Assembly: GCA_964187785.1 (NCBI GenBank)
Contig: OZ076417.1
Location: 16,306,001 to 16,370,000, forward strand
DNA: 64,000 bases
DNA from: Amphiscolops sp. MND2022
Taxonomy: Eukaryota
Reading direction: 5' to 3'
The stretch's first letter is position 1. Each line of letters begins with the position of its first letter. Of the stretch, positions 23,644 to 50,667 are shown piece after piece. The notes beneath the pieces are model-generated. The model saw only the letters and a program-made list of their open reading frames with translations. It did not search any database and was not told the DNA's origin. The translations under genes were made by a program, and so were the position numbers.

Positions 23644-23733
23644 AGAAGAATACAGTCGCAAATAAACCAGGTACTTAGAACAGTTTTAAACCAAATTTAA
23701 ATTGAATAAAATTTTAACAAACACTTTTAAAAC
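23644..23733 (+). repeat. Left terminal inverted repeat of the Polinton
   Basis: AGAAGAATACAGTCGCAAATAAACCAGGTACTTAGAACAGTTTTAA, followed by AT-rich imperfect match out to ~90 bp. Confidence 0.95.
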
Positions 23734-23832
23734 TTCAAACCTTTGTTTGCTGCTGGGAATAAATATTTGATGATAAAGTAGGGGATAGTAGAAAAATAAA
23801 GGGATTTGTTCGCATGCAGAGCAGGGAGTTGG

Positions 23833-24608: not shown

Positions 24609-24722
24609 CGAACATACTGAACACGTAAATTACTATACTTCACATAAAACATTGATAAAAATTATGTCAGTAAAGTTGCACAGTCAAATTTTACAAACTC
24701 TGAGCTTAAATATTATCATGCG

Positions 24723-25142
24723 CTATCTTGAAAGATGGACTAAAAATCTCAAAACGTCTTCTTCTGTGGCATATGACGGAAAACTCGAAATTTGAATCAA
24801 TTTTTCGCTTGTAAGTGACTGTTTTGTTCTATAGTAAAAATGTGCCAAATAAATACAATATATGCCACAGAATTGACTATCAGCAGGCTGAAGTAGCGTC
24901 GAAGATGGCTTGTATTGAAAGACACTTTGATTTCTCGGACGGACGGATCGACCAACTTTTGCAAAGATCTCCGCAAAATACTCTCGGAAATCTCTCCCGA
25001 AACTATTGTAAAGTAACACTGTGTCATTGTTCGAAGCGATGAGTAGCCAGTGTTCACCAGGTTGGGTTGAGGGATGTGTGTTCACAATAATGAATCCATT
25101 TTTTGCAAGGCAGGAAATGTATCTCGGGCATAACAACCTCAA
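24723..25142 (-). CDS. Adenain-like maturation cysteine protease (PRO)
   Basis: IIVNTHPSTQPGEHW (catalytic His), LYNSFG, and LQPADSQFCGIYCI (Gln/Cys motif). The start may lie further upstream. Confidence 0.9.
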   Translation of the reverse strand: MRLLCPRYISCLAKNGFIIVNTHPSTQPGEHWLLIASNNDTVLLYNSFGRDFREYFAEIFAKVGRSVRPRNQSVFQYKPSSTLLQPADSQFCGIYCIYLAHFYYRTKQSLTSEKLIQISSFPSYATEEDVLRFLVHLSR

Positions 25143-25196
25143 AACCGGAATTTGAGTACTGGGTCTTTGTTTATTAGGTCCGTTAACTGAGTGTTG

Positions 25197-26536
25197 TCAA
25201 CCATTGTAAATACTGGAGTTTTTGATAACTTCTCTGTTGCGATCAATGAGAACGATGGACCTCCTCTCGCCCATCAAAATGAGACGAATTGGTTTTGTTG
25301 TTGCTTTGGAGAACTTCAGCTCTAGAGCCAGCCGCGCGCCAGTGAGTTCAGGACGAATTGTGTTGTCCTCGATGTGGTAATCAGCAGTTAATTTAAAAAT
25401 CAGACATAAATGATTATTGAAATTGTCAAGAGTGATACCGTTACCACCATGTTCAAAACCAAGTGCCTTCAGAGTGTTGTAATAGGAACGAACGAGATTA
25501 TCATTGAGATGCAAAGGCGTGGCCCCTACAAGTGCTCCCTCTCGATTGATTCGTACAGTCTCGAGGTCCATTTGCTGAAAGTGGAAAGGATTTGTTTCAA
25601 AATTACTACTGAAGCTAGTTTCCGGCACCAAAAACAACACCAATCGACTTATCGGAGCACGGTTGAAGAGGTCGTCTCTGTAATACATAGTGACGCAGCT
25701 GGAGATTAGGAAGGACTTGGGGACCATCTCACGAAAATTGTATTGAGCGGCTTTTTCGGACAACATTCGGTCGATTGTTAGAAAAGTCTCATTTTTCAAT
25801 TCCAGCTTGTGAACCAACAAAGAGGCGCTTACACTTTGTAAGGAGAAATCACCTGCTGAGTCTTTCGCACATCCTTCATGGACCAACACAAATTGGTCGG
25901 GTGCGCGATGAAGTCGAATTCTGACCTCGACACCAGGAAGTAAAAACTTATGATTGTCTGCCAAGAAGTTATCGGCAATTCTACCGTAAAGACTCTTTAC
26001 TTTGACTCTTTACGTCCAATTTTCACCTAGTTTCTCCCTGTTGCTGAATCACCATTAGTGTCTCCAGGATTTGTTTCGAAACTGTACCCTTGACAGCGTA
26101 GCCAGCCTTCTTTACACGAAGCGTTATGCGAAAGTTCTGCCTCAACCAACGCTTTGTATGGATATAAATTGTTTGCTGACGACACTGGTGTCCCGTTAAG
26201 GGAAACCTCTACATTTTGGAATAAACTATGCATTAAATTGTTAACAAAAACAGGTTTCTTATCAGTTACATCGTCAACATCACCTCTGCCAACAAATTTC
26301 ATTTTGACTTCCAATTTAAGGAAAAGGTTAACCAAGTCTATTACTGTACCTCCAATGTCGGTTTTGGCCCCATGGAAATCAAACTCCAACACCGGCCCAT
26401 CCGCACTGTTTGCAGTGAAAATTTCCTCATGATAACCCCGTTGAAAATCGACAAGGATCTCAGAGGTCCCAAACAATGACAGTCCTGAATGCATGCCAGG
26501 TACTGGTGGCTCGGAGTAAATAAATGTATCAGGCAT
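25197..26536 (-). pseudogene. Major capsid protein (double jelly-roll, PY/hexon), split near 26000-26030
   Basis: VNNLMHSLFQNVEVSLNG...NNLYPYKALVEAEL, LYGRIADNFLADNHKFLLPGVEVRIRL, and NGITLDNF...CLIFKLTAD are typical Maverick MCP motifs. Confidence 0.9.
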
Positions 26537-26784
26537 AATGAAAAGTGAAGTATAATTAACATTTCAAAGTTTTTAATCTCAGTTATCGTAGCAGACGAAA
26601 AGATGGTCAGGCGCGATCAACTATTGAAGCAAAAAAGTCTTGCCGGCTTCTTTTTTTTTGATTTTGTTTTCCGTCGACGGACTGGTTTCCGTCCGATAAG
26701 AGAATCAAGTGACGATTTTTTTCTTTTTCAAAGGTTTCCGACGACGCTGTTTGCTTTTCTTCTTCTTTAGCTACGATTTCTTTT

Positions 26785-27120
26785 TTAGTTTTGGGTAGCG
26801 ACCTTTTTTCCCCGAGGAACGCCACTAACACGACGCCGGCGACCGGAGCACATTTGTTGTCGGATAGTTTTTTTAATTGCATTTTTCATGGCTGCTTTTG
26901 GCTTTGTACTTCCGTCCAAAAGGTTTATAACTTCTGGCGCTGCCTGTTGTAGAAAAGACTTTGCCACAGGAATACCATAACGCTTAACCATGGGAATGAC
27001 GAAGCCTTTGAGGCCAGCTTTGATTGCGGTACCTTTGCCGCTACCGTATTGGCGGTATGGTGATCCTTGGAAGTAATTTAAAGTAGGATGTTGTGGTCTG
27101 TTGTGATAAGAATAGCTCAT
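26785..27120 (-). CDS. Cupiennin-like / adenovirus pVI-pX-like core protein; basic tail probably continued to ~26580 before a stop arose
   Basis: YFQGSPYRQYGSG (FxG...QxGxG putative protease site), followed by an amphipathic Lys-rich helix and an Arg/Lys-rich C-terminus. It sits directly upstream of MCP. Confidence 0.7.
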   Translation of the reverse strand: MSYSYHNRPQHPTLNYFQGSPYRQYGSGKGTAIKAGLKGFVIPMVKRYGIPVAKSFLQQAAPEVINLLDGSTKPKAAMKNAIKKTIRQQMCSGRRRRVSGVPRGKKVATQN

Positions 27121-27337
27121 TACACCTCCAGGTTGACTTTTTTGCAGGACACAAAGGTAAAGCAACCAATTTGGTCTGAAGAGAATACAATTATGAATTA
27201 GGATTTTTGATTTGTTTTTAAAAAATGGCCATTGCTGCAAAGAAAGCAGTGGTAACAATCATGCACTTCTGAAACGCTTAAAAGCTAAACAAAGGAAATA
27301 AATACCATGCGTGTTATGATAAGGAAAATGGAAAAAA

Positions 27338-28168
27338 TCAAGTCTTCTTTCTCAATAAAAGAGTTAATGTTGTTCTTCCGATGCCAACGAAAGGTATCAG
27401 ATCTCCTGTATCAGTGCGTAATTCTATCAGCAAGTCGGTCAAAGTTTTCTTTGACACTTTTTTGAATACTGGAGTTGAAAAAGACATGAAAGAACAAACG
27501 CCGTATCCGAAACTCCCCCCAGGTTTCTCTTCCAAATCTCTTGGCGGCATCTGCTGAGGGTTGAACAAAGGGAAAGTGTTCAATAGAGGCGCTCTACTGT
27601 TTCCAACAAACTGCTGTTCTTTGAAATCGCCATACACGTAAACTTGATGCCAATGATGAAAATCAACTGGGAAATAGGATGGCATGTCATGAAAATGAGG
27701 TGGATGCTTTCAGGGTGACTTCACCCGCTGACATCCAAGAAAATGGAAAAGATCGGGCGACATATTTGCTAATTCGACAGTATTTGGGTAATTCAAAACA
27801 AATTTGTTTTCGGTATCGATTTTCCAACTGAAATAAACTTTCAACTTTTCTTTATTCCATGCCCCTCGCGCACGATGAATGCTTCTATTCATCTCATCAA
27901 TGATTTCCTGCACGTCGTTGTAAACACCCCTCTCAAATTTCCAGTTTTTGACCCACTTCTTTCCACCTACATCCCAATAGAAATGAAAGTAGGAGTCGCG
28001 TACGATATAAATTGTCCGGGGATACGCTATTTCCGTGATCGCAACCTCCCACGGGCCATCAAGTTCAATGGAAATCGGGAGGCATGTCCTGAATGAAGCC
28101 AGAGTGTTCGACTGATACACATCAAGGGAAGCATTAGAAGAGAGTGTGATTGTGAAGGACTCACTCAT
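27338..28168 (-). pseudogene. Minor capsid (penton, PX), split near 27690-27710
   Basis: MSESFTITLSSNASLDVYQSNTLASFRTCLP..IELDGPWEVAITEIAYP and VYVYGDF..QQFVGNSRAPLL...ELRTDTGDLIPF. Confidence 0.9.
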
Positions 28169-28273
28169 GCTACCACCAGTTACATTACTTGACCAAAAAC
28201 ATGGAGGCTTGATGGTAGCTTAATTTAAATAGTGGTGGTGTCGTAGACTGTGCTAAAGGGTAGCAGCTACAGC

Positions 28274-29305
28274 TCAATTTAGGATACGTTGATGACGCGG
28301 CCGGCTCCTGTTCTGTAGATAGTTGAAATGAGTGAGCTCGGAGGTGTAAAATCTTCCCGAAATTGGCTCGCCTTTGATATCTTCCAATCTGTAAGTCCTT
28401 GCCAGTCCAGTTTTCGTAGCCTTACAAATTTGATGAACTTTAAAAACTTCATTGGTGTACTGTTGTTTGTAGCCTTTCCGGAATGGCATGTTTTTCAGCG
28501 CAATACGTACTCGATCACCGACTTCAAATTGAGGTTTCTGCGGACGAGTCTTTGACTTTTCAAATTGGAGAGCAATTAATTTGGGAACGTCTTCAGCAGT
28601 AACATTGGCAGCAGGCATACCAATGGCGCGATTCTAACGCCTGTTTACAAGAGAAGCAAATTTTGGAAGTAGATGAACGTACTTGAAAGTTCGATGTTCT
28701 TCGAAAAACTTGTAGAGAATAGTTTTCAGTGTCCTGATGTAACGCTCGGCCATACAGCTTTTTGTTTCACTGAAAATACTGTAAACTTCAATGTCGTTAT
28801 CGTTGCAAAATTTCAAAAATTCACCCCTGAACTCTTTGCCTTGATCCACCCATAGCTTAATGGGTAACTGCATCGTCTCGAAATTCAACTTTTTCGCAAA
28901 GGCTGCGTTAGCAGCTGCAGCTGTTTTGTTCAACATCGGTTGCACCCAAATGTTTCTAGAGAGCGTGTCCACCGCAAGAAATAAGTATTTGTTACCATTA
29001 TTAAAATTGGCCAATTTATCCATATATGCCACATCCAGTGACCAAACATGGTTAATGCCAAGCGATACAACAGGAAAGCGAGCGAATTTCCGTTTTGTCG
29101 CCCTGAACTTTGTGTACGTCGACGACGATTGTAGGTAAGCCAAGACCTTAGAACGTGGCAAGCCACTTGCTTCCACCAAATTTTTATTGCTGCCAAAAGC
29201 GGCCGGGTCACTTGGGGAGGTATAGATTCCATGGAGTTTACGATATTCTGACTCAGTCAGCTTCCTCTCCTTGACATTTCGATGCCTGCTACGTTCGAAA
29301 GTCAT
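28274..29305 (-). pseudogene. Retroviral-like c-integrase (INT) with one internal stop
   Basis: WSLDVAYM, YLFLAVDTLSR, LWVDQGKEF, AERYIRTLK (DDE triad); C-terminal FEVGDRVRI...FRKGYKQQYT.EVF. Confidence 0.93.
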
Positions 29306-29363
29306 TGCATTCGCTGTGTATGAACGTTTTGATTAGTGATGTAGCTGAGACAATTGCGATTGA

Positions 29364-29921
29364 TTACAAGATCGTTGGCTCCTTTTTAAAGAAATTGCCT
29401 TTGTTGGGGGGAATTAAAATGTTCAAAACAAGAAAGTATTCTTGGGGCACCTTTTTTCGATACTGTTGAAGATCGCGGAGAAACTGTAGAATTTTGATGC
29501 TACTCGTTGGCGTTTCATGAGCCAAATTGTTACTCGTGAAAGAGAAGGTAGCATTGGATTTACTGAATCTTATTCCTCTGGTCGATATCATCAGGTCTAT
29601 TAACCCCTGAACTCTTTTTCTGCGGATAGACAATTCATGTTGTGTCTTTTGTAGGTCTTTTTCAGATTCGTTCTCTGTTTTGGATTGCGGTAAAGGTTCA
29701 ACAATTCCTTGGAGCCATTCTTTTTCAGCGGCGGGCGGCTCTTCACTGGAGTTTGATTGTTTTTCAAATGTTACATCGGGCTCAGAGTCCGGAGCATTTG
29801 GATAATGTGTTTGGTGGGTCGTGAAACGTGAAGTAGTCTCTGCTGTAGTACTGTTTATATCGCTGACCAATGAAGTAAGCTCAAGGTAATGAGATAGGGG
29901 AATCAAAACAAATTCTTCCAT
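29364..29921 (-). CDS. Polinton hypothetical protein between ATPase and integrase
   Basis: Intact 185-aa ORF starting MEEFVLIPL; its position is typical of a conserved Maverick ORF. Confidence 0.6.
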   Translation of the reverse strand: MEEFVLIPLSHYLELTSLVSDINSTTAETTSRFTTHQTHYPNAPDSEPDVTFEKQSNSSEEPPAAEKEWLQGIVEPLPQSKTENESEKDLQKTQHELSIRRKRVQGLIDLMISTRGIRFSKSNATFSFTSNNLAHETPTSSIKILQFLRDLQQYRKKVPQEYFLVLNILIPPNKGNFFKKEPTIL

Positions 29922-29982
29922 CTAAATTGATCCCATTGTAATACCAAAAATACTTCGATTCGGCGTGACCCAATTCACAGCC

Positions 29983-31034
29983 TCAACGATGATTCGGACT
30001 GTATAATGCATATTCCCGGTAAAGAATAGAAGAGGGCGACAACTTCGGAAAGGCAATGATTGGATAGTTTTTGGTCCTGTTTACAGTAATGTTGTGTGTG
30101 CCAACAGTGTGATCTTTATAGACACGAGCGTAATTGTTGAAAACTCTTTTAGGAACGTAAAACACAGTCGGTAGAACCTTTATGAGATTAATGAGGATCC
30201 GATTGTCTGGTTTCTCTTTCTTTTGCGTAATGTTGGTGAATGAATGCACTTTTGATCGTTGTTTGTTTTGTTTAATCAGCGTAGTTTTGTCGTCGCTAGC
30301 TGTGCAGATACGAGTGCTAAAACCTAGGGCATCATGACAGTTGGTGCTGAGATCAATCAGCAGGTGTCCATGTGGCACGGATGTGGCCAACTGGTAAGCA
30401 TCTTGAAGGAACGCAGCATCAGCAAATTCCAGTTCGGACCCCAGTAGCCTGAGCTGCCGACATATTCTTGGTGACTTGAGAATTATCAAATGTCTTGTAT
30501 TTTTGTTGACCGTGACACAATAGTCACCCTGCTGGTACAAGTTATGCTTGATAAAAATCACATTGACCCCTTTATGTCGACCAGCAGTTGCAAGATTGGC
30601 GAATGTTGCGCTCTGAAGAATTTCTTCGCACGAGTCAACAAAAAATGCCAATGCTTTTTCATTTCCAAACGTTGTATGGTATTTGCTTTCCTGGGATTGA
30701 TGATCCAAGAGTTTTGAAATCAGTGTATCTATTATTGAATGACTTGTCTTATGAACTGGGGTTTGGTGTTTCTGATTACCAAGTTTTGCAAGGCCGGTTT
30801 CGTTCCCCGTTTCAACCACGTTTTCGAAGAAAACTTTGCTTGGCACATCTTGATAAAATTGTTCGTAAATTGTTTGCCAATGGCGGTAAAAGAGGATAAC
30901 TTTTTCGAACCTCGGCCAGAAAATACCGTCGGAACGACTGGTCAGCATGTTTAGTAAAAGGTGTGTTTTACCAGAGCCTGATGCGCCACAGATACACATA
31001 AAAATGTGATTTCTGTGGAACTTAATTTAATCAT
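29983..31034 (-). CDS. A32/FtsK-family DNA packaging ATPase (probable 1-nt frameshift just after the true start at 31034)
   Basis: Walker A GASGSGKT, altered Walker B (FFVDSCEE), arginine finger AGRHKGVNVIFIKHNLY, and ATSVPHGHLLIDL. Confidence 0.92.
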
Positions 31035-31038
31035 TTCG

Positions 31039-31245
31039 TTATTCATTTGATCTGTCGAGATTATCAGCATTGGGTAACAAGTAGGCAATGCAAGTGGAAA
31101 GAATCTTGAAAAGAGCAGTTCGTTCTTCACAATTCAGTGAGGATACCAATAACATTCTACTAACGGAGAACAATACAAGACCCATGACGAAAAAATCTGT
31201 GAGAAAAAAATGAAAAAAGTTCGGCTTACTTGCCAATTGAAGCAA
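31039..31245 (-). CDS. Small membrane protein, Maverick type, paralog 1
   Basis: Two hydrophobic segments ending ILSTCIAYLLPN. Confidence 0.5.
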   Translation of the reverse strand: MLQLASKPNFFHFFLTDFFVMGLVLFSVSRMLLVSSLNCEERTALFKILSTCIAYLLPNADNLDRSNE

Positions 31246-31392
31246 ATGTCAGACTCCTATTCCACGTCAAAATTTATACTGCAGGAAAGATTCATTGCGT
31301 CTTTTGACTGGTTGTAAAGACTTAGTGTTGCATTTGATTCTGGCAAACAAATTTAGTCATGGTAATCCACGCCTTCAATCTGCGTGTCGGGT

Positions 31393-31890
31393 TCAATCTG
31401 CAACGCTACCGAAGTGTTTAAAACAGCAGGAACCTCGTTTTTTTCCCAGATTTGCTTCATTTGATTGCTGATCGTGACGTTTTTGAGGTGATGAAAAACC
31501 TTGCGCTGTTAATTCCGTTCTTTTTGAGTGTTGATTGGATGATTTCTTTACAGTGCGTTGTCTTTTCTCACTTTGGACTTTCACAGGTACTCTCGGGGCC
31601 GGAATAAGATAGGCTAACGTTGAGCTCAGAATGCTCATATAAATTGATGTATCAAGACACGAATTGTCAGTTATTTCTCGGTTCTGTTTTGTGCTTGCTT
31701 CAGTTTGGGATGTGATAAGTTTCAACAGACAGAATGCGTCCAAAATAAAAATGACAGCAAGTTGTGTCAAAAATACAGCTTGAGAAAACGGTAAGCAACG
31801 CGGTGACTGCCCAATGGACTCACAAAAAGACTCATCACTTTGTCGATCGCTAGCTTTGACCCTCTGACTCTGACTGTGGAGGTCCGCCAA
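31393..31890 (-). CDS. Small membrane protein, Maverick type, paralog 2
   Basis: FLTQLAVIFILDAFCLLKL...SILSSTLAYLIPAP, sharing the L(S)S..AYL.P motif with paralog 1. Confidence 0.6.
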   Translation of the reverse strand: MADLHSQSQRVKASDRQSDESFCESIGQSPRCLPFSQAVFLTQLAVIFILDAFCLLKLITSQTEASTKQNREITDNSCLDTSIYMSILSSTLAYLIPAPRVPVKVQSEKRQRTVKKSSNQHSKRTELTAQGFSSPQKRHDQQSNEANLGKKRGSCCFKHFGSVAD

Positions 31891-32308
31891 CTTGTAAGAG
31901 GTTAATTCTGATGACTCAGGGGAACTTTTCGTTCACGAAGAGGCGAGATGTCGCTCTTTTCAAATCTCGTCTTTATTTGTGTCCTCGTCTGTTCCGTCGG
32001 GTACAAATTGTATCGCAACCATGCATCTTAAAAGCAAATAAACATTATTATCGAGAATCTCTGTACAGTGACTTCGTTAGTATAAGCTGAGACAAAACAA
32101 TACTGAAACAAAGTAGTGAGAAGCCAAAAACAATACATTATCAACAGTATAAATTTTATCCATAGTAATAATGTGCACATAAATGAGAAAAAAGTTAAAA
32201 ACAAACTGATGGGAACCAAACAAAAACATACAGTTAGAAAAAGGTTTGAACAAAAACATGGAAAAAATACTAGCAAACTCTGAACACACAAAAAACATGA
32301 ATTGGACT

Positions 32309-33244
32309 TTATGTCAAAACGCTTGTTGTCGATGTAATGGGAGCTACTGGGGTTACAACCGGCCCCGACAAGTTGTTAATCGTCGAAGCAATGGATGTCA
32401 TTGAATCCGGAGGAAGTTGAAATTCGTCTTCAGATACTTCACTGTCAAAGTCATAGTCACCCATGTTATCATCGCTTTTGTTGTCACCTTGCCCGCTGTC
32501 CGTCTCTGACTGCTGCTCGACAGGAGCACGTATATTAGCTGCCGGAAGGTAGCGCAAGTCTGATGATGTTGAAGATCGGCCACCAGCGATAACTGATGAA
32601 TTGCAGGAGTTTTGTGGCTGGACTGAAGGATTGTTAGTGAGCGTGCTAGCAGCTCGATTGGAGTCAATTGTATTTAAATCTTGTTGCGTCATCCCATCAA
32701 AACTAGATGTGCTCGGCTGTGGGGCGTAACTTCTCAATGTCGGAATTATAGAGGTTCTGGGCACACATCAAGTATTGTTACACCAGATACCGGCAATATT
32801 CAAAAAATGAAAGGATCCGTTGGTATGCTGTGATGTATAGTGCCTCGTCATGTATGGCCTTTCTCTAACCAAAGTGTTTTGGGCTGAATAACCGTAATTT
32901 GCTGTATCGTTAACAACATGATTGGACGTAAAGCCAGGGTGTTGGACTGACATTGTGTTACTGGGCTGCTGGGGGGCTATTCCGCTTTGTAAATGAGAGA
33001 GAAGAATTTGTGACGGCCGGCTGTACATTGGGATACCCCGTTGAAGTCTCGTGTTGTCATTCTGAGCATTCGTGTAGTCACGAAATGTCAAAATGTTCAT
33101 TGCAAGAGGTTTGCTGTGAACTAAACTACAATACTCTTCCCAGCTCATATCAAATTGCTGCGTGCGACCGACAGAATCCAATGGCACTGGCCCATATAAA
33201 CCTCGGGGTTGCTCTCTAACTAGATACACTCTGGGATAGAGCAC
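32309..33244 (-). pseudogene. Polinton accessory ORF (~310 aa, Ser/Thr- and acid-rich), interrupted by one in-frame TGA at 32768-32770
   Basis: ORFs 32768-33244 and 32309-32764 are in the same frame. Confidence 0.55.
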
Positions 33245-33428
33245 TTGTTGAGGGTTATACGAGTAATTGTTGGATTGTGTAGGGAGGTTTTAATAGAACT
33301 GCAATGCAATGCGCAAAGAATCTGATAATGGAACATAAGCGGACATGGCTTTTGGATGTCAATCGCTGGAGCAATTATTTGAGAAGTGCGCCAAAGTATC
33401 TGAAATGAGTGGAATACCTGATTTTTAA

Positions 33429-34034
33429 TCAAAAGAAGAAGAAAAAACCTGTAAAATGCCCAAGCCAAAAAACATTTGGTAGTAACTGAAATGGTAGCAT
33501 ATAGTTGTAACTGGGACCCTTCTGACGAGACCGATACAAGTGGCCATAAGCATCATGGAAAACAGCGTGTAACTTCAAAATTGATGATATAGTTGAAAAA
33601 ACGTAATGCGTTCTGACGGTCATTCCAGGTCCAATTATACCGCCCCAAGGTGCACAATGCGACATATCAACCATTTTGAAAATTTTGTTGATAGCACATT
33701 GATCAAAAACTCCTTGACATGTACAAGAATTCGTTTCCACGATAATTACCGTTAAAAACAGAATGTGATTGAAATAAAAACGTCGGGGGACGGAATTGTC
33801 GAGTTGTAGGTGAATTTTCCGGCAAATAGCATCGTGAACGATTTCGCTTTCGTAACTTGCTGCAATCGCTTTGAGGCAATAATCAGCCACGATCTCATAG
33901 TTAGTTTTTGTGCAATGCCTGTGGAATTTGCGGGCAATTTCAAAAAACAATTCAAGTTTTGACAAAGTCAGCGCAAACTTGTCTGACCGCTCCAATGTAT
34001 TGAAACTGAGCAAAATGGTCTTTTCCAAAAACAC
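33429..34034 (-). CDS. Putative phospholipase A2-like accessory protein
   Basis: GGIIGPG followed 22 residues later by HDAY, resembling the parvoviral/adintoviral PLA2 pattern YxGPG...HDxxY. Confidence 0.45.
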   Translation of the reverse strand: MFLEKTILLSFNTLERSDKFALTLSKLELFFEIARKFHRHCTKTNYEIVADYCLKAIAASYESEIVHDAICRKIHLQLDNSVPRRFYFNHILFLTVIIVETNSCTCQGVFDQCAINKIFKMVDMSHCAPWGGIIGPGMTVRTHYVFSTISSILKLHAVFHDAYGHLYRSRQKGPSYNYMLPFQLLPNVFWLGHFTGFFFFF

Positions 34035-34204
34035 GCAATACTAAATAATCGAGTACTAGATTGTGGAAATAAAACCAATGATAGCCGACTTTTCCAAGAA
34101 AACATGGGGAAAAAACTCGCTGGGCCAGCTAAAGATTTGAAATAAAAATAGAAATTAGACGAATATTTTATTACAAGTAACCACCACGGACAACGTAAAT
34201 ACCA

Positions 34205-35115
34205 CTACAGACTCTGGTACATAGGGATACAATGAAGTTCCCAAAGAACACAGGCCTTCATTTTGGGGGCTCGCTTCGGAAAAAGCTCTCTGTTTGCATA
34301 GTCTGCCGATTGTCTTTTTCGCTCCATTTTCATTGCGTAATTGAAGGTATTTCCAACGATTGTGGTGAAACCGTCGTCAGCAGCACAACAAAGCTGGTCC
34401 ACAAGGAGTAAGGACACCATACATTTCTCTGTTGAACTGAAAAGCTACGAAATTCTTTGTTTTTCAAGTCGATGCTGAAAAATTTTTGTATTTGGCGAAC
34501 AACTGCTTCAAGTTGCCAATTGATGTTGGTCTCTGTAGTAACAACTGGGTCAAGAGGGTCTCTAAATGTGTCAATAGGTAATGTTGAGGGTGAAATGGTG
34601 GCACTCGGCAAATCTGCGCTTCTCTCAATGACGTTCAGGTTGCCACTGTTTCCAGAAACAGAAACTTGCGCAGCCTCTTCCACTTTTATACGCTTAGCAG
34701 ATGGATTCTTTCCTGCGACTGATTGTACAGAGACATCGTAGCCTACTTTACATTGTTGCCCTGTGGTATTTGCTGCTGGCACATGGACTAAAATGTGAAT
34801 ATGATTGTCGATAGTGGAGGCGTCCCTTGGCTCCGGCAAAATGTAACACCGTCCAGATGGGAACCTGTCATTTTGTATTTGCGGTGACACATCACAAATG
34901 CATCACACTTCATCAAAATTGTAACCGCATTGTCTGTAACAACTGAAAAGATGTGCCCCCATTAGATAATCGACAATTCTAGCAGCGAACATCTCACATA
35001 ATTTTTCCCGTACGTACAGACATTGCTTCACTGCTTTGTCTTCAGAGTTTGGGTTCGGGTAAAAAACGAAATGGGCATAAAAGGACGATGATTTACGTCG
35101 GAATTCCATTGACAA
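34205..35115 (-). pseudogene. Polinton accessory ORF with a Cys cluster, broken by one stop and one frameshift
   Basis: 34903-35115 and 34330-34890 are in frame across a TGA (CYRQCGYNFDEV*CIC), and 34205-34420 continues in another frame. Confidence 0.5.
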
Positions 35116-35149
35116 AAAGTCTGAAACACAGCAGTTCGTTAATTGGGCC

Positions 35150-38100
35150 AGTTTTGATTATTAACCAATGAGGATGTTTAATCCAGATGATCAATCGAGA
35201 TTTAAGCACAAATGTTATTTTCAAAAGCAAAGTAATAGCCACACAACAAAGACGAATGTTCTACAAACTTGATAAAAGTTATGTATGTCTAAAATGAGAA
35301 GTTATTGTTCAACCGACGTAACCAAACGGTGTAGATTCGCCGGAATTTGTGTTGAAAACACGTTTCTTACTTGTGACTCGGGCTCGTTTTTCACAAAACT
35401 TGATTTTCAGTTGGCCTGTTCAAACACAACGACTCAGACTACTGTAAGGACTTCGCAATTCATGAGTCTCACCAAGCACGAGTTTTCTGAAGGTATCGGG
35501 GTTGAATGTTTTCTCTGTAGCCCTATTCAGCGTTACACCCTTGACTTTGAAAAAATTATAATCCAGTCCTGTTTTAACGTTGTGACCAGACAAGCAATAA
35601 AACTTTGACCCTGCACTCCAAAACTTGTCAATCAAGACATCAGGAGGCTGTTCATCGGTCATTTCGCCCAATCCACTCCCAATTGAGATATCCGGGGAAT
35701 CGGTCAGAGATTGATCGTGGACATACATGGACACAATCGTGGACGAGCATGTGCAGTTGTGAAGGCAGCAAGAATCACATTTGTCTTCCGTGGAGCGTCT
35801 GCCGCGTCATCAATGAGTTGATATTGTAGCAGCATCAAATCATCGCCCACTAGAGTCGCATCAGTAACTCTTTTTGTTCGCGATGTGAAATAGTCCACGA
35901 CCTCTCGATAGTTGTTGACGTACCTCGTTTTTAGCATATTATCCCGCATTCCGAGATAAGAAGCTGTTCAAAAGTATTTTAGCAATAAAGCGTAGACCTT
36001 CGTTTTTCTCTATCCTCGCAGGGTCAAGTGAAATGCCTTCTTTCTTCTTCATCTCCTGAAGGTAACGCCTCTTATGCTCGCATATCATTTCTGTCGATGA
36101 ATCAGAATTCATCTTCTCTTCACAGCGGCATGTTTTTGGCCAACCAGATGCCTCCATTTTTATTTTCAAAAAGTTATCGATATATTCTTTGAACAATGTC
36201 ACAGACCTTTTTGCTCTCGACCAACACCAAATCTTTGCTACATCTATCACTCGGTATCCATTTTCCAAAGCAAGCTTAACTTCTGGGGTAGCAAATGTGC
36301 CCCAGAAACTCCTCTCTTCTACTTGGCGATGAACACACTTCTTTGACGTCAAGTCCACACTCTTTTTGTCAGGCATGCTGGATTTTTTTTCAACGCAACT
36401 TCGACATAGCGGTAAAAACAGTTTCGATTGAAATTTGAATGGTAAAATGGGTAGATGTATATCAGACGGTGGCAGTACTTGGCATTTTATCAGACCAAAA
36501 TAATCCTCGTTTTTCAGTTTTAATTCAACAAAAATTAAGGGGAATTCCAAAAGCGTTCGTTGCGAGAACTTTCGGAACCTCTGTGGTGGAGGCAGAGAAT
36601 GTGATTGTTCAGCTTTACATTGATCTCCTCCCGAATCCCGTTCGTTACTGGGCATTGTAAGAATCCTGTCAACCCGATCCAAAAATTTAAACTCCACAGC
36701 TTTACTTTGAGCTACATTCACATCCTCGTCAAAGCAACTTGTTTGAGGCGGTTTTTCATTGGCAGAGTTGCTGTTATTCCGAGCCTTTTCTTTACGCGCA
36801 ATCGATTGTTGTTGCTGTTCTGTAGCAATCAGAATCAAATCAGGATGCCCTGAAGGGTACACTGACCTCAAATTCACATATGGGTACAGCGAACAAACAT
36901 CGACATACTTGAAGGTCTGAGACTGTAGTTGTCGAGACCACTTCATGACAAAATTTTCTGTTCTTCCTCCAAAAAAAGCGTCACGAGGCTTTAACGGACT
37001 GTAACGAATGCTGTCATTTGACATCTGTTGCAGTAGTTTGATGCTCCTCAGCCGATACAGTAAGTTCTGATGTATTACACGACTTTATTCGACCTGCTGG
37101 ATGTCATCGGAAATGCTCGAGCGGGAGCTGCCGAGTCTTGCTGCTACTGACCTCGGCAAATGCGTCCACGTTGTATCAATTCCTTCATCGTCTTCAGATA
37201 TGGACAGTTCCAACAGTTTTTTAAACTCACATTCCCAAATGGAAAATATACTATGCACAACAAAACGTAAGTTATCTGTTGTTGTGAAGAATGTGCCGTT
37301 CGAGATTTGAGCTGATATCCAGTCCAGTCTGTCCAAAACTGTTGTGGTGTACAAATCATGCATTGTTGTAGCATTTTGTTTCTTGTTAACCTCATCTCGG
37401 TCTGTAAAACAAGAAGGACACCCGTGGAAGTAACATACAAAAAACTCCAAAACTATCGACAGTTGTGGTTTCTGGACAACACTCCCACATGTGGTACTCT
37501 TTGATTGAGAAGTTCGTTTGTACAGAAGAAGTCCGTCTACTTTGAATGATCCAAGTCGCTGCTCCTTACCTCTGCCTCGCTTCAATCCTCCGCCTGATTT
37601 ATACAGACGAATACTGAACTCGTTTGACTTCCGATAATTTGCAACTTGTTCCACCCACGACAGCCAAACGGCAGCCGGGAAAGACGTTAACTCATTGACC
37701 GTGTAACCGTTCTGAGGGAGGATTGTGATGGAGTCCTTCGGCATGAATAGTTGTCTATAAATGAAATTACATCCTGATGCTGCTATGCAAGCGACTTCGA
37801 ACGGATCTATTCCGCTGCACACTTTCTTGATTAATGTTCTAAACTTCAAAAAATCCTCTTTGAGTAGTTTAACATCTGGCTGACAGTACGACACGAGTTC
37901 TTGTTGAAAGTCGTAAACGAGCTTCTTAACGTTATAAAGCTGGGTCTGTGCTGAGTGCCATTCCAAAAACGTACTCACCGTTTGCTGTCCTTTCATCGAA
38001 TTCAAAGCAAAAAGGCACGCGGGTGGAAATTGGCCTTCCTTGAGAGCAAACTCTTGGCATTCTTCTTCTTGGTCATTTCCTGCATTGAAGCAGCTAACAT

Positions 38101-40306
38101 TGCTTTGTGTAGCTACACAGCGATTGCAGTCGTTGGAAACAATTTTGCGCAGATTGCAGTTTTCCCCTTTCTCGCATGTTTGTACACTATGCAGCTTTGA
38201 AGTAGCGGCGGGATAGAGGGCCTCTTTAGATGTCAAAAAATGAGGAAAGTATCCTTTTTTCAATTCCTTGAGATTGAACGTTGTGGGAAATTTTGATAAA
38301 GGTATCGGGATGAAAAGATAAGAATTTTTCCCCACACGCATTGACACAACCTTGTTACCTCTGAGCAAAATTTTGGGAACATATTTGTGTTGTTTGTAGA
38401 GCCATTCCAGGATTGAAAGGAAATCGAACCCACTGCCAAAATGGGCAATAAACCATTCAGTTTGACGAACCCTTTCAACACTAGCAAAAACATCCTCATA
38501 AAAATCGTTTATACTATCGTAGCCACAGTAAATAACTTCATCACCTGTCAGAGACTCTGCTGCCAGTAGAATTGGTTTATGTAGCCCTCCATTGCCACAA
38601 CTCTGGTCAGTTTCTATGTCAAAAACCCAAATTTTGTCATCCGAGGGAGCTCGTGCAAAGTTGTTTGCTGGCTGGTCACGGGACGTAACAGTACCATCGT
38701 CATCGACTGGAGCGTTGCTCATTTTCCTGCGTTTGATTTGCGTCATCGGATCTTCTTTCTCAACTTCTTCACGATAATTCTCTCCGCCCAATATTTCACA
38801 GTAAGGAAATTCGTTACTGGTATCACCATCCGGTATTTCTCGCTCTATACATCTCTTCGGTTTTTGTACAAAACATTGATGTTCCGATGAAGGCGAAGAG
38901 GTGTTTTTACGGTCTGACAATGAGTAATGAACGGAGCATGTAGAACAGCGTTTTTTGAGCAAATATGATTGGAGAATGCTCGCTTAGGTACAGTATTGTC
39001 GCATGTAGGGCACAAAGTGTACAAATGACACACCCCAGAGGTAACATGGCAATCCAGACACTTTTGGCTTCGTACCTTTAGCCTGCATCTATCATACTGG
39101 AAAACCGGTGATTGGCGAGGGGTCTTTGACAAGTCATTGGACAATGTAGTCCAATTGAGCGGCGAAAGGTTGATGAAACCGGTCCTATTGAGACAGCCAG
39201 ACTGCCGACACAGCAAACAACCACTGGCAGAGCACAAATGCTTCACTGTGGAAAAGGCCTTGTGACAACTGTAACAGTAGTGGCGAGCATCGAATAGTCC
39301 TTTCATTGAGGTAACTAAATCTACATGTCTGTTTTGAGCATCATACAAAAAGTCGATATTCTGCTGTGCTTCCTGATTATAACATCTAAGGAAAGTGCCC
39401 ATAAAGTTGCTATCGTAAACAGATAAACATAAGTCTTTCAACACTTGCGACAGACAAAAATTCTAAATCTTGTAGAGCAAGAGGTTTACCAGAAGCAGGA
39501 GAGATTTGAGCTGTCTGATAGTGAAGCAACCCAGTAGAGAAGTCGTCAAAGGCAGAGGTGGGAAGTCTTTTCGAGGAAGCACCACCGGCCAAAATTGTCT
39601 GCAATTCGTCTTGGGGGATGCTTGGATCAGATTTCAGAAGGGTTATCAAATGCTGCATTTCACGCGTTTGCACGGAAGCCCGATCCAGGCGCAAGTTTTT
39701 TTGTCGTTTTTCTTTTATTAGAAGGCCGGGGAGATCGCTCCTTAACTTTGATGCCAATTGCTATGGCCCGCAAAAGACAATCGTTCTGGTCACTTTTGAT
39801 TACAATTATTGACTTCTTTTGTTTTGTGAAGAGCTTGATATCGGGAACAGTCCTGCTCTGTATGCCTCCAAAGCGGTTTCCGCCCATTGTTGGTAAAGAA
39901 ACACTCAAAACGGTGACTTTGTTGTTGCTAATATTGTTGACAAAACTTTTTTGTTGACAAAATTGTTGCTAATATCAAATGACTCGTTGAAATTAACGAC
40001 CCTGTCAATTTCATCGAGAATCAGTTCGGCGTTGAAATCCGCCACGGACGAGAATGGGATATGAATAGGATAGTTGAGATTAGGCGCATTCAATACCAAT
40101 CGAATTCTGTGTGAATGACCAGAAAGATCTTGCTGTATCTCAGATATCAGTTTGTTGATGAGGTGGTTGAAAATTTCTTTGATTCGATCCAGCACACTTT
40201 CAATGTCCGTGAAGTACACTTCATAGTCTCTGCTGGCCGCTCGCAACAGACTACGTCTCTGTGGCATTCGATTTACACAATAGTACTGCTCAGGATTGAA
40301 CCCCAT
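35150..40306 (-). pseudogene. polB: Protein-primed DNA polymerase B (pPolB), multiple frameshifts
   Basis: N-terminal RIRLVL..PNL.YPIHIPF and NDCLLRAIAIG; ExoI VFDIET; ExoII AHFGSGFDF; KGYFPHF; ExoIII YCQPDV; VSR-like KVDG...EF..CYFHGCPSC; RDAFFGGRTE; YVDVCSLYP; AKILLNS; GLGEMTDE; KVKGVTL. Confidence 0.95.
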
Positions 40307-40464
40307 GGCATAATCTGCAACAAACGCAAAGCAACAAGAACTAAACGTGTCACAGCAGCAATTAAAACTACTGTAAGATTGATGAAGATTCCAAATAGTA
40401 AAAAAACAAAATCAACAACATAAATTATATGAAGAAGGTATTTAAATAAATGGTCCGGAAACAA
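40273..40464 (-). CDS. Small hydrophobic protein
   Basis: 63-aa ORF with a long hydrophobic stretch directly upstream of pPolB. Confidence 0.3.
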   Translation of the reverse strand: MFPDHLFKYLLHIIYVVDFVFLLFGIFINLTVVLIAAVTRLVLVALRLLQIMPWGSILSSTIV

Positions 40465-40926
40465 ACTTGTATACGCAACACGTCACAGAGGGGTTAGCCT
40501 GATGAGTATAAATGAGAACAGAAATACTGTATGAAAAAATGCCTTTTTAGAAGCCAATAAGGGAATCGTAATATGAGAATTTGACCAAAATTAAAAAATG
40601 TCAAACTCAACGCACGCGCAAGAACAAACAAACCAATGTACAACAAAACATCGATCTTTAAAAGACGTTTAGTTCATGAAAAATTCATCATCATCATCCT
40701 CAGTGGTGGCTATGTTCGTACCAGTCTCACCGTTGAACATAACAAAATCTCGTTTCTCAAACAATTTTTGGTTTTCAACGTCGGCCTCGATTGTTATGTT
40801 CTCATTGTCGCCATTGGTCAAACAGTCGTCCGTGACATTTTGGGCCCGCTTCTTCGATGTGGTTGTGGTTGACCCGACTTTCGAACCATTGACCTTGGAA
40901 AAACCTTTCTTGCCAGTAGGCTTCTT

Positions 40927-41379
40927 TCAAACGTTGAGATTGACGTAGGTTCTCGGAAACCACCCGTCAGAGCTTCCTCCATCGCTCTGTTGAACTCTCG
41001 CAGATTTCACCCCTGATGATTCCAATGCCGTCTTGTCACCTAGACCAAGCAAAGCCACAAACGTAGTCAGCTCTTCAACAGTGAACAAAAAGTGACCCTG
41101 CTGCTGCCACTGGCCGCTTTGAAAATCGGGTTTGAATAGTCGCAGCCCGATGTAAGTCGCAGTTGTCATCTCCGAAGAGAGGTTGTTTGGGTAGCACTTC
41201 ACTCCGATTCTAACCCAGCGATTATGCGACTTGGCAATGTCCCACCATTTGTCGTGGCTGGACTCGTCTTGCTCCGGTGAGATTCGCCAGGAAGACACAC
41301 CAGATTTTGCATTGTTTCCAACAATACCCAGAGTCTTCTTCTGGGAGCGCTTACGTACAACACTGTTCAACCAATTCAT
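40927..41379 (-). CDS. Hypothetical protein, possibly PC4-like ssDNA-binding fold
   Basis: Intact 150-aa ORF; pattern NRWVRIGV...YIGLRLF...W...FLFTVEELTTF resembles PC4/Whirly beta-sheet plus helix. Confidence 0.5.
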   Translation of the reverse strand: MNWLNSVVRKRSQKKTLGIVGNNAKSGVSSWRISPEQDESSHDKWWDIAKSHNRWVRIGVKCYPNNLSSEMTTATYIGLRLFKPDFQSGQWQQQGHFLFTVEELTTFVALLGLGDKTALESSGVKSARVQQSDGGSSDGWFPRTYVNLNV

Positions 41380-41809
41380 CTTTTTTCGTCAAAACAATGA
41401 GACTCTGAAACGGAAAGAGTACTGTGAATCTGAACTCTCAAAAATGTAGCAAAACCTGTAGTCAGCGACTTTAACAAAAAAAATTGAACTGTGATTTGAA
41501 GGGAGAAAACTTTTTGAGGCGCAACGAATACATATATAGTTTGCTGCGTTTCGGACAGAATGGGAGAATCAATTTCAAGACTCCAACTATTTTATGTCTT
41601 TTGCCAAAAAACCTCTAGACTGTATAGGTGACAAAATCCAAAAAAAAAAAACAGGACCGATTACAAACATTTTATTGATGAAGACTGATTCTTTCTCACT
41701 CCTTGAAAAAAATACCTTGAATTTTAAGCAAATTTAAGACAATTCAACGCTTCAAAAAACATGTTACAACAAGAAAAAACTGCTATCCAGCGCAACGTTT
41801 AGTTACAAA

Positions 41810-44800
41810 TTACAGAGCTTGCGATTGCATTCTGGTAATTCTTTGGGCTTCCAAGATAGACTTCCGGGAAACCATCAGGGGATGATGTTCATCAGTGACC
41901 GTTGAACCTTTTGAACAATTCTGAAAATAGAATTTTTTCACCAGATGTTCAACAAATTCGTTGGGCCATTCACAGCTAAACAAATCGTCGGCTTGCTCTT
42001 GATACATATTCAACAGACACTCTGGCACAAGACTTGACAAGGCTTTTGGCTGATTAAAAACCTCTAATATCATCAATGATTCCGTGGTTTTGGTGAAGTC
42101 AATTCTAATCTCATAAGCGAGGTCACTTTGGAAACAGATTGTCTGCAAAAGTAATTGGTCGTTGAGGCCAAATCGCAGCACACCCTGCTCAAAATCGACA
42201 ATGAGAAGAAATTCGAATATATTCTCTTCGTTATTGCTATTGAGCCAAATGGTCTCCAGTTTCTCTAGGCAGTTGTTTGGCAAGAAAATAAGAGTATCGT
42301 TTTCAACCAACTGCATTCCTCCAACATCCCAGTAAAATTTGATAAGGAACCCATCGTTGACGGATTCTACCGGCAGGCTGCTCAGACCAATAATGAAGCG
42401 TGTTTCCCCGACCAGCAAAGATGGGAAATCATTGATCTTCGCGAGAAGCTTGACGACCCTGACGGCTACATTGCCATTGAGGTTGTAGAAAATTATATCA
42501 GGAACTGTGACATCATGATTGAAGATCCCATCGTCACTCCAATCATCGTCCGAATCCGAATCGCCGGCGGGGAAATCTTTTTCAATTGCATCGTAGTCAA
42601 TACCAAGGACCAGATTGTCGAATGGTCGCTTGTAGTGATAGTCCATTACCTCGTATTTTTTCCATTTTATTGGCTTCACGTCCGTGTTAGATCCGAGAAA
42701 ACCTCGGTAAACGTGATTGACGTCCATGTCAATTGATTGACCGGGAGAAAAAACGTTGCTGTAGTCTTTCACTATAGCGCTGTAACCAAGGAAAATATTT
42801 GTGAACTGCACGACGTACGGCGTGAGGACCACAACGTTGAGACTTGACCGTCGACCTCTCCGAAAATAGTCGTATAGAAGTTGAAAAGCGTCCAGCTGCT
42901 TTCGGAACTGTATCTCCTGAACAAACAGAAAGATCATGTCAATTTACAATATCTACAATCATAGTCTGTAACTGTTTTATTACTAAAACTACTGATTTCA
43001 AATGAAGGTCCTGTTAGTCCAGTGGATACTGATTGGGCCGGATAATGTCGACAGAGTGTTCAGTGATGAAGGTTTGAACCACTGCCAGAGTCGAGGTTCA
43101 ACTTTCTGGAATAGATACCACTGTGATTGTTGATGTTTCGCATCACCTTGCCTTCCCAAGAGGCAGGCGACAATGTCTAGCGAATCATCATGGCCACGAA
43201 ATTAACAAGACTTTTTTTGTGCTTCAACATTTGATTGCCCAGGGAGCTTGGCAAATAGAAAAACTATCCGACCACCCACTGGGTCGTGACACAAGTCCTA
43301 CGTACGTGTGTGCACTTGTATTGTACATTGGCAATGCGCAAACAACAAAAAAACAACATTGCCCCATTGCCCAGGGAGCTTGGCAAAAGGAAAAAAAATC
43401 CGCGCGACGCGGATTTTCTCCGGCCACCCACTGGGTCGTGACACAAGTCCTACATACGTGTGTGCACTTGTATTGTACATTGGCAATGCGCAAACAACAC
43501 AAAAACAACAATGCCTCATTGACCAGGGAGCTTGGCAAAAGGAAAAAATAAAAATCCACGCGACGCGGATTTTCTCCGGCCACCCACTGGGTCGTGACAC
43601 AAGTCCTACATACGTGTGTGCACTTGTATTGTACATTGGCAATGCGCAAACAACACAAAAACAACAATGCCCTATTGACCAGGGAGCTTGGCAAAAGGAA
43701 AAAATAAAAATCCTCGCGACGCGGATTTCCACCGGCCACCCACTGGGTCGTGACACAAGTCCTACGTACGTGTGTGCACTTGTATTGTACATTGGCAATG
43801 TGCAAACAACACAAAAACAACATTGCCCCATTGACCAGGGAGCTTGGCAAAAGGAAAAAATAAAAATCCGGGCGACGCGGATTTTCTCCGGCCACCCACT
43901 GGGTCGTGACACAAGTCCTACGTACGTGTGTGCACTTGTATTGTACATTGGCAATGCGCGAACAACACAAAAACAACATTGCCCCATTGACCAGGGAGCT
44001 TGGCAAAAGGAAAAAATAAAAATCCGCGCGACGCGGATTTTCTCCGACCACCCACTGGGTCGTGACACAAGTCCTACGTACGTGCGTGCACTTGTATTGA
44101 ACATTGGCAATGCGCAAACAACACAAAAACAACATTGCCCCATTGACCAGGGAGCTTGGCAAAAGGAAAAAAAATAAAAATCCGCGCGACGCGGATTTTC
44201 TCCGGCCACCCACTGGGTCGTGACACAAGTCCTACGTACGTGCGTGCACTTGTATTGAACATTGGCAATGCGCAAACAACACAAAAACAACATTGCCCTT
44301 TTGACCATGGAGCTTGGCAAAAGGAAAAAATAAAAATCCGCGCGACGCGGATTTTCTCCGACCACCCACTGGGTCGTGACACAAGTCCTACGTACGTGTG
44401 TGGTTTTGTATTGTACATTGGCAATGCGCAAACAACACAAAAACAACGATTTCCAACAAGTCAACTATTGTGTGTGCCTCAGATTTGCCAAAAAAGATCA
44501 AAAAAAACTTTATCGAACTTTTCGTACCTTCGTTACAACAAGATATTCTATTAACGTGGCTTTTTTTGTTTCTTTTTTTTTCAAATTGATTGTGCAACTT
44601 GACTTTCGTTAAAGATTCGAATTTTCGCGAAGTAAACACCACAGTTGCTTGAAGTATGCAAATAAAAAAAACTGTCAAAAATATGAATATTGCTTCAACA
44701 TACCTGGGACATTGAGTCCTGAGAGATCTCCGATGGATAGACTTCTTCTTCCTCTTCGTAGGGCGGCGGCAAAACAAAGATCGTGGTGGTAAGCAGAGGC

Positions 44801-45039
44801 GACTGCGAGTTGGCGTTGATGATTCTAGAATAAATAAGGTTGATTTGCAAACTCGTGAATAAATTTAATAATGAAGTTTAATGAAATTTAATAAGAATTT
44901 GTCTTCAATCCAGTAAGCAAACGAACTAATAAATAACCCACATTTCCATTTCTGGATAGTTCTGGGTGGTGGTGGCGGCGATGCTGGTGGTGGTAGCGGC
45001 GGCAGCGATGCTGGTGGTGTTGTTGTTGTTTTGAGACAT
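41810..45039 (-). CDS. Predicted spliced Polinton gene (exons 45039-44942, 44824-44704, 42916-41810; 441 aa): PPxY + SPRY-like + SOCS-box-like protein
   Basis: GT-AG introns with matching phases: AT|GTGGGT...TTATTCTAG|A and CAG|GTATGT...TCTTTCTGTTTGTTCAG|GAG. The joined frame is open throughout. Motifs: LPPPYEEEEE, LLIVDFEQGVLRFGLND, and PKALSSLVPECLL...WPNEFVEHL. Confidence 0.6.
43230..44450. repeat. Tandem array of ~8 x 156-bp units inside the Polinton
   Basis: The anchor CCACCCACTGGGTCGTGACACAAGTCC starts at 43272, 43424, 43580, 43736, 43892, 44048, 44206 and 44362. Most units carry the hairpin AAAATCCGCG-CGA-CGCGGATTTT or a single-base variant. Confidence 0.97.
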
Positions 45040-45461
45040 GCTATAACAGAAAAAAAACTAAAGAAGCTTGCTATTTTTGTTGATTGGGAACGGAAATTCA
45101 GTTAGAAAAATACTAACATTTGCTGCGGGATTTTGTGTAGTCGTAGAAGATTGAGTAGAAGTGTTAGCGTTGAAGAAAGAGCTGCTGTTGTTGATAAAGA
45201 GTTGATGATGCATAGTTGTGCAATTGAAAATTACAACAGATGAGTGTGTGAGCCAATTCTATTGGCCGTGAGAGCACACGAAAGTAAAAAAATGCTGCAT
45301 GTGGGAACGGCGCGGAAAAATCCGCGCTCGTAGAGCCTGCGCGGATGAATCCGCGCTCGTATAGCTTGTGCGGATGCGTGCGCAAATTAAATTAAAAGCA
45401 GCCACGCGTGTGCGTATAGGAATGAAGACTCAATTCCTTTTCAGTGATTCTTAAAAGTATT

Positions 45462-45551
45462 TGTAAAAGTGCTTGTGTTAAATTTTAATTGAATTTATAT
45501 TTGGGTTAAAACTGTTCTAAGTACCTGGTTTATTTGCGGCTGTATTCTTCT
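45462..45551 (-). repeat. Right terminal inverted repeat of the Polinton
   Basis: Reverse complement reads AGAAGAATACAGCCGCAAATAAACCAGGTACTTAGAACAGTTTTAA, matching the left TIR. Confidence 0.95.
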
Positions 45552-46212
45552 AATGGTTTCTTTTCTGGAACTCGGTGTTAAGTCTGTTTAGTGATTCGAA
45601 AAAAATCTTGCGACAACGGAAAAACATTATCTCTTCCCTTCAACAGAACAGACAAATCGCGACACAATTTATGAACGATCATGTCGCGATTACGCTAAAA
45701 TCTTACTATTGATAATGTCACGATTCGTACAACGACTGACATGATGTCGTAGTAAGATCTTACTACTTACTGTATAATTGAGTTTGTATAATTTGACCAA
45801 AGCGCTCGAGTAAAGTTGCACCGTAGAGACAACACATATACCAATGCACACTTGTAGATTGAATCAAGTTATACGTTGAAGCTGCACTAGCTGCTTTGTT
45901 TTTGTTTCACAGTTTGAATTATATTTGAGCACCTGGCTATTTGTTCAGAAAATGAACGTGCTTCAAAACTGCACACAAGGTTGTGTATATTTGAAAAGAA
46001 GAAATTTTTGAATAACTCTACTCATGTTTTAGCTGCACGGTAACTTTAGATTCCTTATATACAGCTTATTACATTCATAGTGCTTCAAAAAATTGTTCCA
46101 CATATCCTTGATTCAGATAGATACCTTAGTTCCAACCGGATTACATTCTGATCAAGTGGTGTCCTTATCAACCTCATCACTCAAATATACAAGAGTTATT
46201 CGGTTGACAGCA

Positions 46213-50600: not shown

Positions 50601-50667
50601 AACAGGCCGGTAGGTCCTTTGTACACTGTGTGTAGACCAGCTGCCATTGTGTAAGCCAAGATTTCAC

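Follow-up and report, generated by a model that had tools for sequence, protein, structure and literature searches.

Introduction

Polintons spread in the germlines of animals in spite of silencing by the host, and a function has been assigned to few of their accessory genes. The element described here lies in a 64,000-nucleotide window (the whole stretch of DNA analysed, G000:C9:16306001-16370000 of a 1.07-Gb genome) and carries a gene with predicted introns beside one terminal repeat, which a preliminary description had read as a captured, diverged SPSB-like ubiquitin-ligase adaptor. What does this cargo gene encode, and has the element or the host had use of it? We give a little more than an even chance to the reading that it is element-selected Polinton cargo, whose product is predicted to join a SPRY domain to a BC-box-like helix and is likely a substrate adaptor of an Elongin BC/cullin ligase, probably of the Cul2 type.

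The Polinton and its core genes

The element and its core genes were located as follows.

23644..45551, no strand assigned: Polinton/Maverick, complete but decayed, 21.9 kb long, with AG...CT ends and terminal inverted repeats (TIRs) of ~77 bp
23638..23643, plus strand: left target-site duplication AATGGT
45552..45557, plus strand: right target-site duplication AATGGT
35744..40421, minus strand: protein-primed DNA polymerase B (pPolB), by Pfam; broken in the window copy
29986..31070, minus strand: packaging ATPase (Pox_A32-like), Pfam below cut-off; broken
28277..29305, minus strand: integrase (rve), by Pfam; broken
25200..26536, minus strand: major capsid protein, by weak Pfam match and capsid comparison; broken
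24726..25204, minus strand: adenain-like protease, by Pfam; broken

The TIRs with AG...CT ends, the 6-bp target duplication on both sides and the gene set (pPolB, retroviral-type integrase, ATPase, protease and capsid, all on the minus strand) are those of a Polinton. Pfam detected pPolB, rve, Peptidase_C5, Pox_A32 and, weakly, Capsid_N; the ATPase and capsid matches score under the Pfam cut-off, and the capsid is backed by a separate genome-wide capsid comparison. Measured against the open frames of two sister copies, the core genes of the window copy have 35 breaks in 14.7 kb and 27 breaks in 12.7 kb, or 2.1-2.4 per kb. The element is complete but dead.

A conserved gene of ~240 aa, present in all four subfamilies described below, stands between the cargo gene and pPolB (window 40672-41379, minus strand); by eye its product resembles a PC4-type DNA-binding domain, and the Pfam scan gave no match to it. 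Elsewhere in the window, positions 49300-64000 are GC-richer, with many minus-strand frame fragments and a duplication of ~680 bp, and probably represent a further decayed element; short repeat and inverted-repeat units occur near 5.7-8.0 kb (5745-8016). Several further Polinton families in this genome have many young, almost identical copies, whose capsid is 32-39% identical to that of the window; five such loci are without the cargo gene. At G000:C9:25398696-25404864, tandem units of ~555 bp are built from the element terminal repeat and pieces of the promoter/5'-UTR (70-78% identity), and by its sequence this array is a satellite derived from this end of the Polinton.

Gene model of the cargo gene

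The predicted parts of the cargo gene, in order of transcription, are listed below.

45041..45117, minus strand: predicted intron in the 5' UTR, GTTAGT...TAG, with its acceptor 1 nt ahead of the ATG; missed in the preliminary description
44942..45039, minus strand: coding exon 1, 98 nt, phase-2 end, donor GTGGGT
44704..44824, minus strand: coding exon 2, 121 nt, acceptor TTCTAG, donor GTATGT, phase-0 end, LPPPYEEEEE in frame
43235..44472, no strand assigned: tandem array of a 156-bp unit, inside intron 2
41810..42916, minus strand: coding exon 3, acceptor TTTGTTCAG, 368 codons and stop

It had been proposed that the apparent start of a 375-aa open frame is a splice acceptor and that two upstream exons join it in frame, and both proposals held up in the DNA sequence. 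Exon 3 begins at 42916 directly after its acceptor, which reads AG in 20 of the 23 matches, and by arithmetic on GT-AG borders and compatible phases the exons sum to 441 aa (32+1+40+368). Exon 3 is laid out as an N-terminal region, an acidic insert, the predicted SPRY/B30.2 sandwich, the BC-box-like helix with a Cul2-box-like pattern, and a tail. Exon 1 is of low complexity (N/T/A/S) and varies in length by triplets; we weigh these length changes lightly, because triplet repeats would give triplet steps anyway.

Exons 1 and 2 were compared in 20 copies including the window, the best 20 of 61 upstream-region matches. Among these, the ATG, the exon-1 phase, donor 1 and acceptor 1 are intact in 20/20, as are the GT and AG of the 5'-UTR intron; the exon-2 phase and the GT of donor 2 are intact in 19/20, and three of the 20 have a premature stop in exons 1-2. 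The frame conservation in sister copies that was earlier set as a check on the model is seen, for the intron phases, in 19-20 of 20. Subfamilies B1 and B2, ~34% identical in exon 3, give by sequence a stronger test than close copies: exon 1 ends in phase 2 in 7/7 sequences delimited among 11 loci, exon 2 ends in phase 0 in 5/5 delimited sequences, and the motif YP[DS]EI[DS]xxxxSE, conserved family-wide, occupies the same place in exon 2. In subfamily C we recognised by eye a single 23-codon phase-0 exon in four copies. On these borders and phases we infer splicing of the cargo gene with high confidence.

A second open frame of exons 1-2 had been raised as a caveat and is rejected here: its opening ATG is private to the window copy, with ATT in the other 19, and in exon 2 pN/pS is 0.52 (p=0.048) for the called frame against 1.39 and 0.93 for the other two. 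Tandem arrays in the intron before exon 3 have units of 156 bp in A, ~149 bp in B2 and 134 bp in C (134-150 bp in sisters); the units differ among A, B2 and C although the site is the same, and B1 holds larger duplications there. The intron-2 array may be regulatory or replication-related.

Distribution and subfamilies

The genome search with exon 3 gave 77 matches, grouped into 40 loci, and 35 of the 40 lie within 12 kb of a pPolB match or 20 kb of a capsid match. Two of the remaining five are element fragments and three are without demonstrated core-gene linkage. Orthologues fill one position in four subfamilies (A, to which the window belongs, B1, B2 and C), subfamily C having been found through position, beside the same neighbour gene. 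Identity among the four is 64-81% in the capsid and 18-42% in exon 3, suggesting that the cargo gene is an old resident evolving faster than the core. At the five distant-Polinton loci it was absent (A4 profile against 918 frames, best E 0.94), and an intact host-located parent was not found.

Public sequence searches detected unnamed close kin only, nine proteins in one set and 28 of 1.84 billion representatives, none of them with a Pfam family. The best match of P0012 in this genome is 42%; with no close copy here, it indicates that the family probably extends to another genome. The viral contigs and metagenome contigs searched contained no loci of the family.

At G000:C8:53466698-53484868 (L077, L078) a B2-type exon 3 is present as degraded tandem pieces, with eight or more partial repeats, and exon 3 is tandemly duplicated in some elements (G000:C12:23176000-23185999, L072; C2:25168031-25174164; C3:80398172-80401121). 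A small tandem host family at G000:C6:21116541-21136098 and C7:16566742-16603565 encodes, in a single frame of ~350 aa, a SPRY domain with an unrelated C-terminal domain.

Predicted fold

Exon-3 residues ~80-290 are predicted as a SPRY/B30.2 bent beta-sandwich in an AF2 model built from 20 sequences (pLDDT 60 overall, 70-90 in the core, below 50 in the SOCS region). A first model from ten sequences had pLDDT 46 and left SPRY (Z 10.9) and galectin (Z 10.1) unseparated. In the VIA search with the 20-sequence model, the top 24 rows were all SPRY/B30.2 domains; the best row was TRIM67, a TRIM PRYSPRY and not an SPSB (Z 12.3, rmsd 2.6, 147 aligned), and SPSB3-EloBC aligned over model residues 78-315, into the SOCS box (Z 10.9, rmsd 4.3, 170 aligned). 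The best galectin reached Z 8.9, and NHR domains 9.2 and 8.7. Foldseek agreed, returning gustavus, SPSB1 and SPSB2 at E 1e-5 to 4e-5, so that the SPRY-like fold claimed earlier is supported by the predicted model.

The comparison with sequence profiles, part of the check proposed earlier, gave little or nothing. Pfam scans gave no SPRY (PF00622) or SOCS_box match in any family member, hhalign against a host SPSB-like SPRY was weak (E 0.064, probability 0.9%), and PDB sequence searches of the cargo protein gave no relevant match; a RAMP match in Pfam (E 0.003, below the cut-off) was rejected. For both the window (0.93) and B2 (0.92) the top ESM Atlas clusters combine a SOCS box with either SPRY or Neuralized; with a recognition value of 2123 (under the 2300 mark) and 167 shared features (just under 170), the lead is moderate by the calibration of the tool itself. 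The predicted SPRY fold, the BC-box-like helix that follows it and these neighbours make a captured, diverged SPRY-SOCS host gene, as first suggested, the likely source.

The galectin tie in the ten-sequence model would also suit a virion structural or attachment protein of the Polinton with a ConA-like or galectin-like head, as would the BFVD viral-library matches to ConA-like phage and giant-virus proteins (E 1e-5 to 4e-4), which are general ConA-like folds, and related viruses are listed with lectin-like genes in an adintovirus survey (PMC8502044). We consider this improbable: SPRY is ahead of galectin by more than 3 Z in the better model, the gene, with its introns, is placed next to the TIR and away from the capsid block, and it is missing at the five Polinton loci with distant capsids.

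Selection and decay

Selection on exon 3 was measured in 20 rows, the window and 19 subfamily-A loci, with duplicates, fragments and the most degraded copies excluded. Variants in at least two copies had pN/pS 0.28 (50 N, 49 S; p=6e-10), and singletons 0.99. For shared variants the value was 0.21 in the SPRY part and 0.49 in the SOCS+tail part (p=0.08), where constraint is weak. The core genes had 0.17 for shared and 0.79 for singleton variants in pPolB (14 rows), and 0.04 and 0.57 in the capsid (17 rows). Private to the window were 14 N and 2 S changes in exon 3; with an expected N fraction of 0.79 this gives p=0.89 for a deficit of N, as in neutral evolution. Purifying selection on shared variants together with neutral private ones suggests that the protein mattered during element replication and that inserted copies, the window's included, decay. 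The cargo gene is under purifying selection in the element lineage and decays neutrally in the window copy; selection across copies, proposed earlier as a check, thus appears in the shared variants and is lacking in the singletons and private changes.

It had also been pointed out that the frame is unbroken amid broken core genes. Both observations stand, and the special status implied by them does not: exon 3 is broken in 8/18 full-length sisters and intact in 10/18, against 3/13 broken for a pPolB stretch and 3/16 for a capsid stretch, the two stretches having been picked as open in the window, which biases the comparison in their favour. At the break rate of the window copy, 1323 unbroken bases have a chance of 0.04-0.06, which is unremarkable since about 15 frames were available and the gene was chosen for its intactness. 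Host domestication of the window copy would account for the intact frame, and that low chance is the point in its favour; it is contradicted by the neutral private changes, and the singleton ratio over the 20 rows, the roughly 15 candidate frames and the ten intact sisters argue the same way. We regard domestication as highly improbable.

BC box, cullin box and PPxY

The region following the SPRY domain contains one further feature.

41945..42049, minus strand: degenerate BC box and W-P-x-x-F-x-x-x-L, exon-3 aa ~290-325, Val at the Cys position

The BC-box consensus is (S/T/P)LxxxC/S/Axxx-phi (PMC4878042). Right after the SPRY domain it is present in strict form in B2, P0011 and P0012; B1 and P0014 also keep the Cys, with the first consensus position missed. 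The strict consensus in the ancestral register fails in the window, B1, C, P0004 and P0014, and subfamily A has it only in the +3 register, through a Cys absent from the other subfamilies. The replacement of the Cys by Val, noted as a caveat in the preliminary description, is confirmed in all 19 subfamily-A rows examined; P0004 has Gly and C has Thr. The BC-box Leu and the Pro two residues upstream are invariant in 13/13 rows, down to 19% identity. Val need not be fatal, since one host SOCS box above the Pfam cut-off (L159) has the same change. In poxvirus ANK/BC proteins loss of Leu and Cys abolished Cul2 binding (PMC6232478). With its degenerate box, the subfamily of the window may have weak affinity for Elongin. 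A small and weak profile built on seven host SOCS boxes gave scores reached by 80/200 shuffles for the window, 10/200 for B2 and 4/200 for P0012.

Of the SOCS box first described, a predicted BC-box-like helix directly after SPRY remains, and the Cul5 box and the Pfam SOCS_box are missing. Cul5 requires an LP-phi-P/LPxP box (PMC4812663), and LPxP was found in 0/8 members tested, so that the proposed recruitment of Cul5 is not upheld. The Cul2-box pattern phi-P-x-x-phi-x-x-x-phi (PMC4878042) fits better; by eye it is matched in the window and subfamily A, P0004 and P0012, with the Pro kept in B1 and absent in B2 and C.

The same residues bear on a ligase-less decoy, whose SPRY would shield or sequester a host protein or compete with host SPSB and whose C-terminal helices would be a SOCS-box relic, above all in the subfamily of the window. 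The substitutions at the Cys position, the missing LPxP and the stronger constraint on SPRY than on SOCS+tail (0.21 against 0.49) are consistent with it, and poxvirus ANK/BC proteins without the BC box still inhibit IRF-3 (PMC6232478). The invariance of the Leu and Pro and the Cys retained in B1, B2, P0011, P0012 and P0014 argue against it, and we hold the decoy to be possible but doubtful.

PPxY motifs bind NEDD4-family WW domains. The motif had been taken as a feature of the gene as such, and it proved to be confined to subfamily A: it is encoded in 20/20 copies (best 20 of 61) and in frame in 19, and it is absent from five delimited B1/B2 exon-2 sequences and from C. All four changes in its five codons are synonymous (4/4). 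A switch of ligase, from an ancestor using Elongin BC to recruitment of a NEDD4-family HECT ligase by the new PPxY while the BC box decays, would explain why the motif is restricted to the subfamily in which the Cys was lost and why the motif is retained. However, four changes are few, the motif is short and could readily evolve from the VLPP of B2, both Cys and PPxY are missing from subfamily C, and a consensus BC box survives in shifted register in A; we rate the switch as rather unlikely. A broader conjecture, that the Polinton clade keeps an SPSB-like cullin adaptor against a host protein of germline defence or DNA sensing and that the subfamily of the window turned to PPxY and NEDD4 as its BC box decayed, is unlikely too, by a shade less.

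Proposed origin, working and significance

In the favoured reading, that of a SPRY/BC-box adaptor, a host SPRY-SOCS gene of the SPSB or NEURL2 type would have been captured before the subfamilies split and would be expressed from a promoter adjoining the terminal repeat. The SPRY face would bind a host protein and the C-terminal helix would dock on Elongin C, with Cul2 a more likely cullin partner than Cul5; a precedent is given by poxvirus ANK/BC proteins, described as binding Cul2 via the BC box without cullin-box homology (PMC6232478). A host factor restricting the element would thereby be ubiquitylated during element replication. Host SPSB proteins bind Vasa (PMC2923778) and target cGAS (PMC10972748), which makes Vasa- or cGAS-like targets plausible.

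Intron-bearing Maverick cargo and viral BC-box adaptors are known already. The literature covered, with most subscription journals, supplements and Repbase annotations outside its scope, describes no SPRY/BC-box gene in Polintons, and the word SOCS has 0 occurrences in the main text, as distinct from the supplements, of the adintovirus survey (PMC8502044). A SPRY/BC-box gene under element-level purifying selection is a concrete counter-defence candidate, and the SPRY partner of its product would point to the host factor restricting Polintons. If the reading is true, a virus-like element may rid itself of a host defence protein by means of an adaptor-like product. Both the BC-box Cys and PPxY are present in some natural subfamilies and absent from others, which offers a ready comparison. 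Neither Pfam nor plain ORF calling detected the gene, suggesting that similar spliced cargo may be missed elsewhere.

Comparison with known systems

The closest known proteins in proposed working are SPSB1-4 and gustavus, CRL5 receptors with SPRY and SOCS box. The cargo protein shares with them a predicted SPRY followed by a BC-box-like helix, the SPSB3-EloBC alignment entering the SOCS box, and by eye the strands W-D-x-x-x-x-L-x-x-D and D-x-D-x-G-x-L-x-F. It differs in lacking the LPxP Cul5 box and a Pfam match, in the Cys lost in the subfamily of the window, in the acidic insert in the domain and the 40-aa tail after the box, and in being encoded by a Polinton; it also has no SPRY-box intron, while in the host SPSB-like gene of this genome the box is encoded by an exon ~7 kb downstream. 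The NNN pocket of SPSB1/2/4 consists of Arg77, Tyr129, Trp217 and Gly218 (PMC2923778); in this region B1/B2 have, by eye and in an unreliable alignment, Y-G-K-x-C-E against W-G-H-C-E in the host gene. Without a Cul5 box or a Pfam match, the protein is SPSB-like in its proposed working and is not filed as SPSB. Proteins of the NEURL2/OZZ type, Neuralized plus SOCS box, tie with SPSB in ESM Atlas (0.93 and 0.91), but their NHR domains are structurally lower (Z 9.2 and 8.7).

Among viral systems, adenovirus E4orf6 and lentiviral Vif are described as BC-box proteins without a canonical Cul5 box (PMC4812663, PMC4878042). With these and the poxvirus ANK/BC Cul2 adaptors (PMC6232478) the cargo protein has in common a viral BC box, the missing Cul5 box and a proposed host origin; its substrate domain is SPRY instead of ankyrin, and binding has been demonstrated there and is predicted here. 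Nematode Mavericks are reported to carry intron-bearing cargo beside the TIR, namely wasp/msft-1 and krma (bioRxiv 10.1101/2022.07.12.499685). That cargo resembles ours in its introns, its place adjoining the TIR and its poor conservation relative to the core genes; it belongs to another protein class, and in the elements studied here the same orthologue holds the slot in four subfamilies and is not exchanged.
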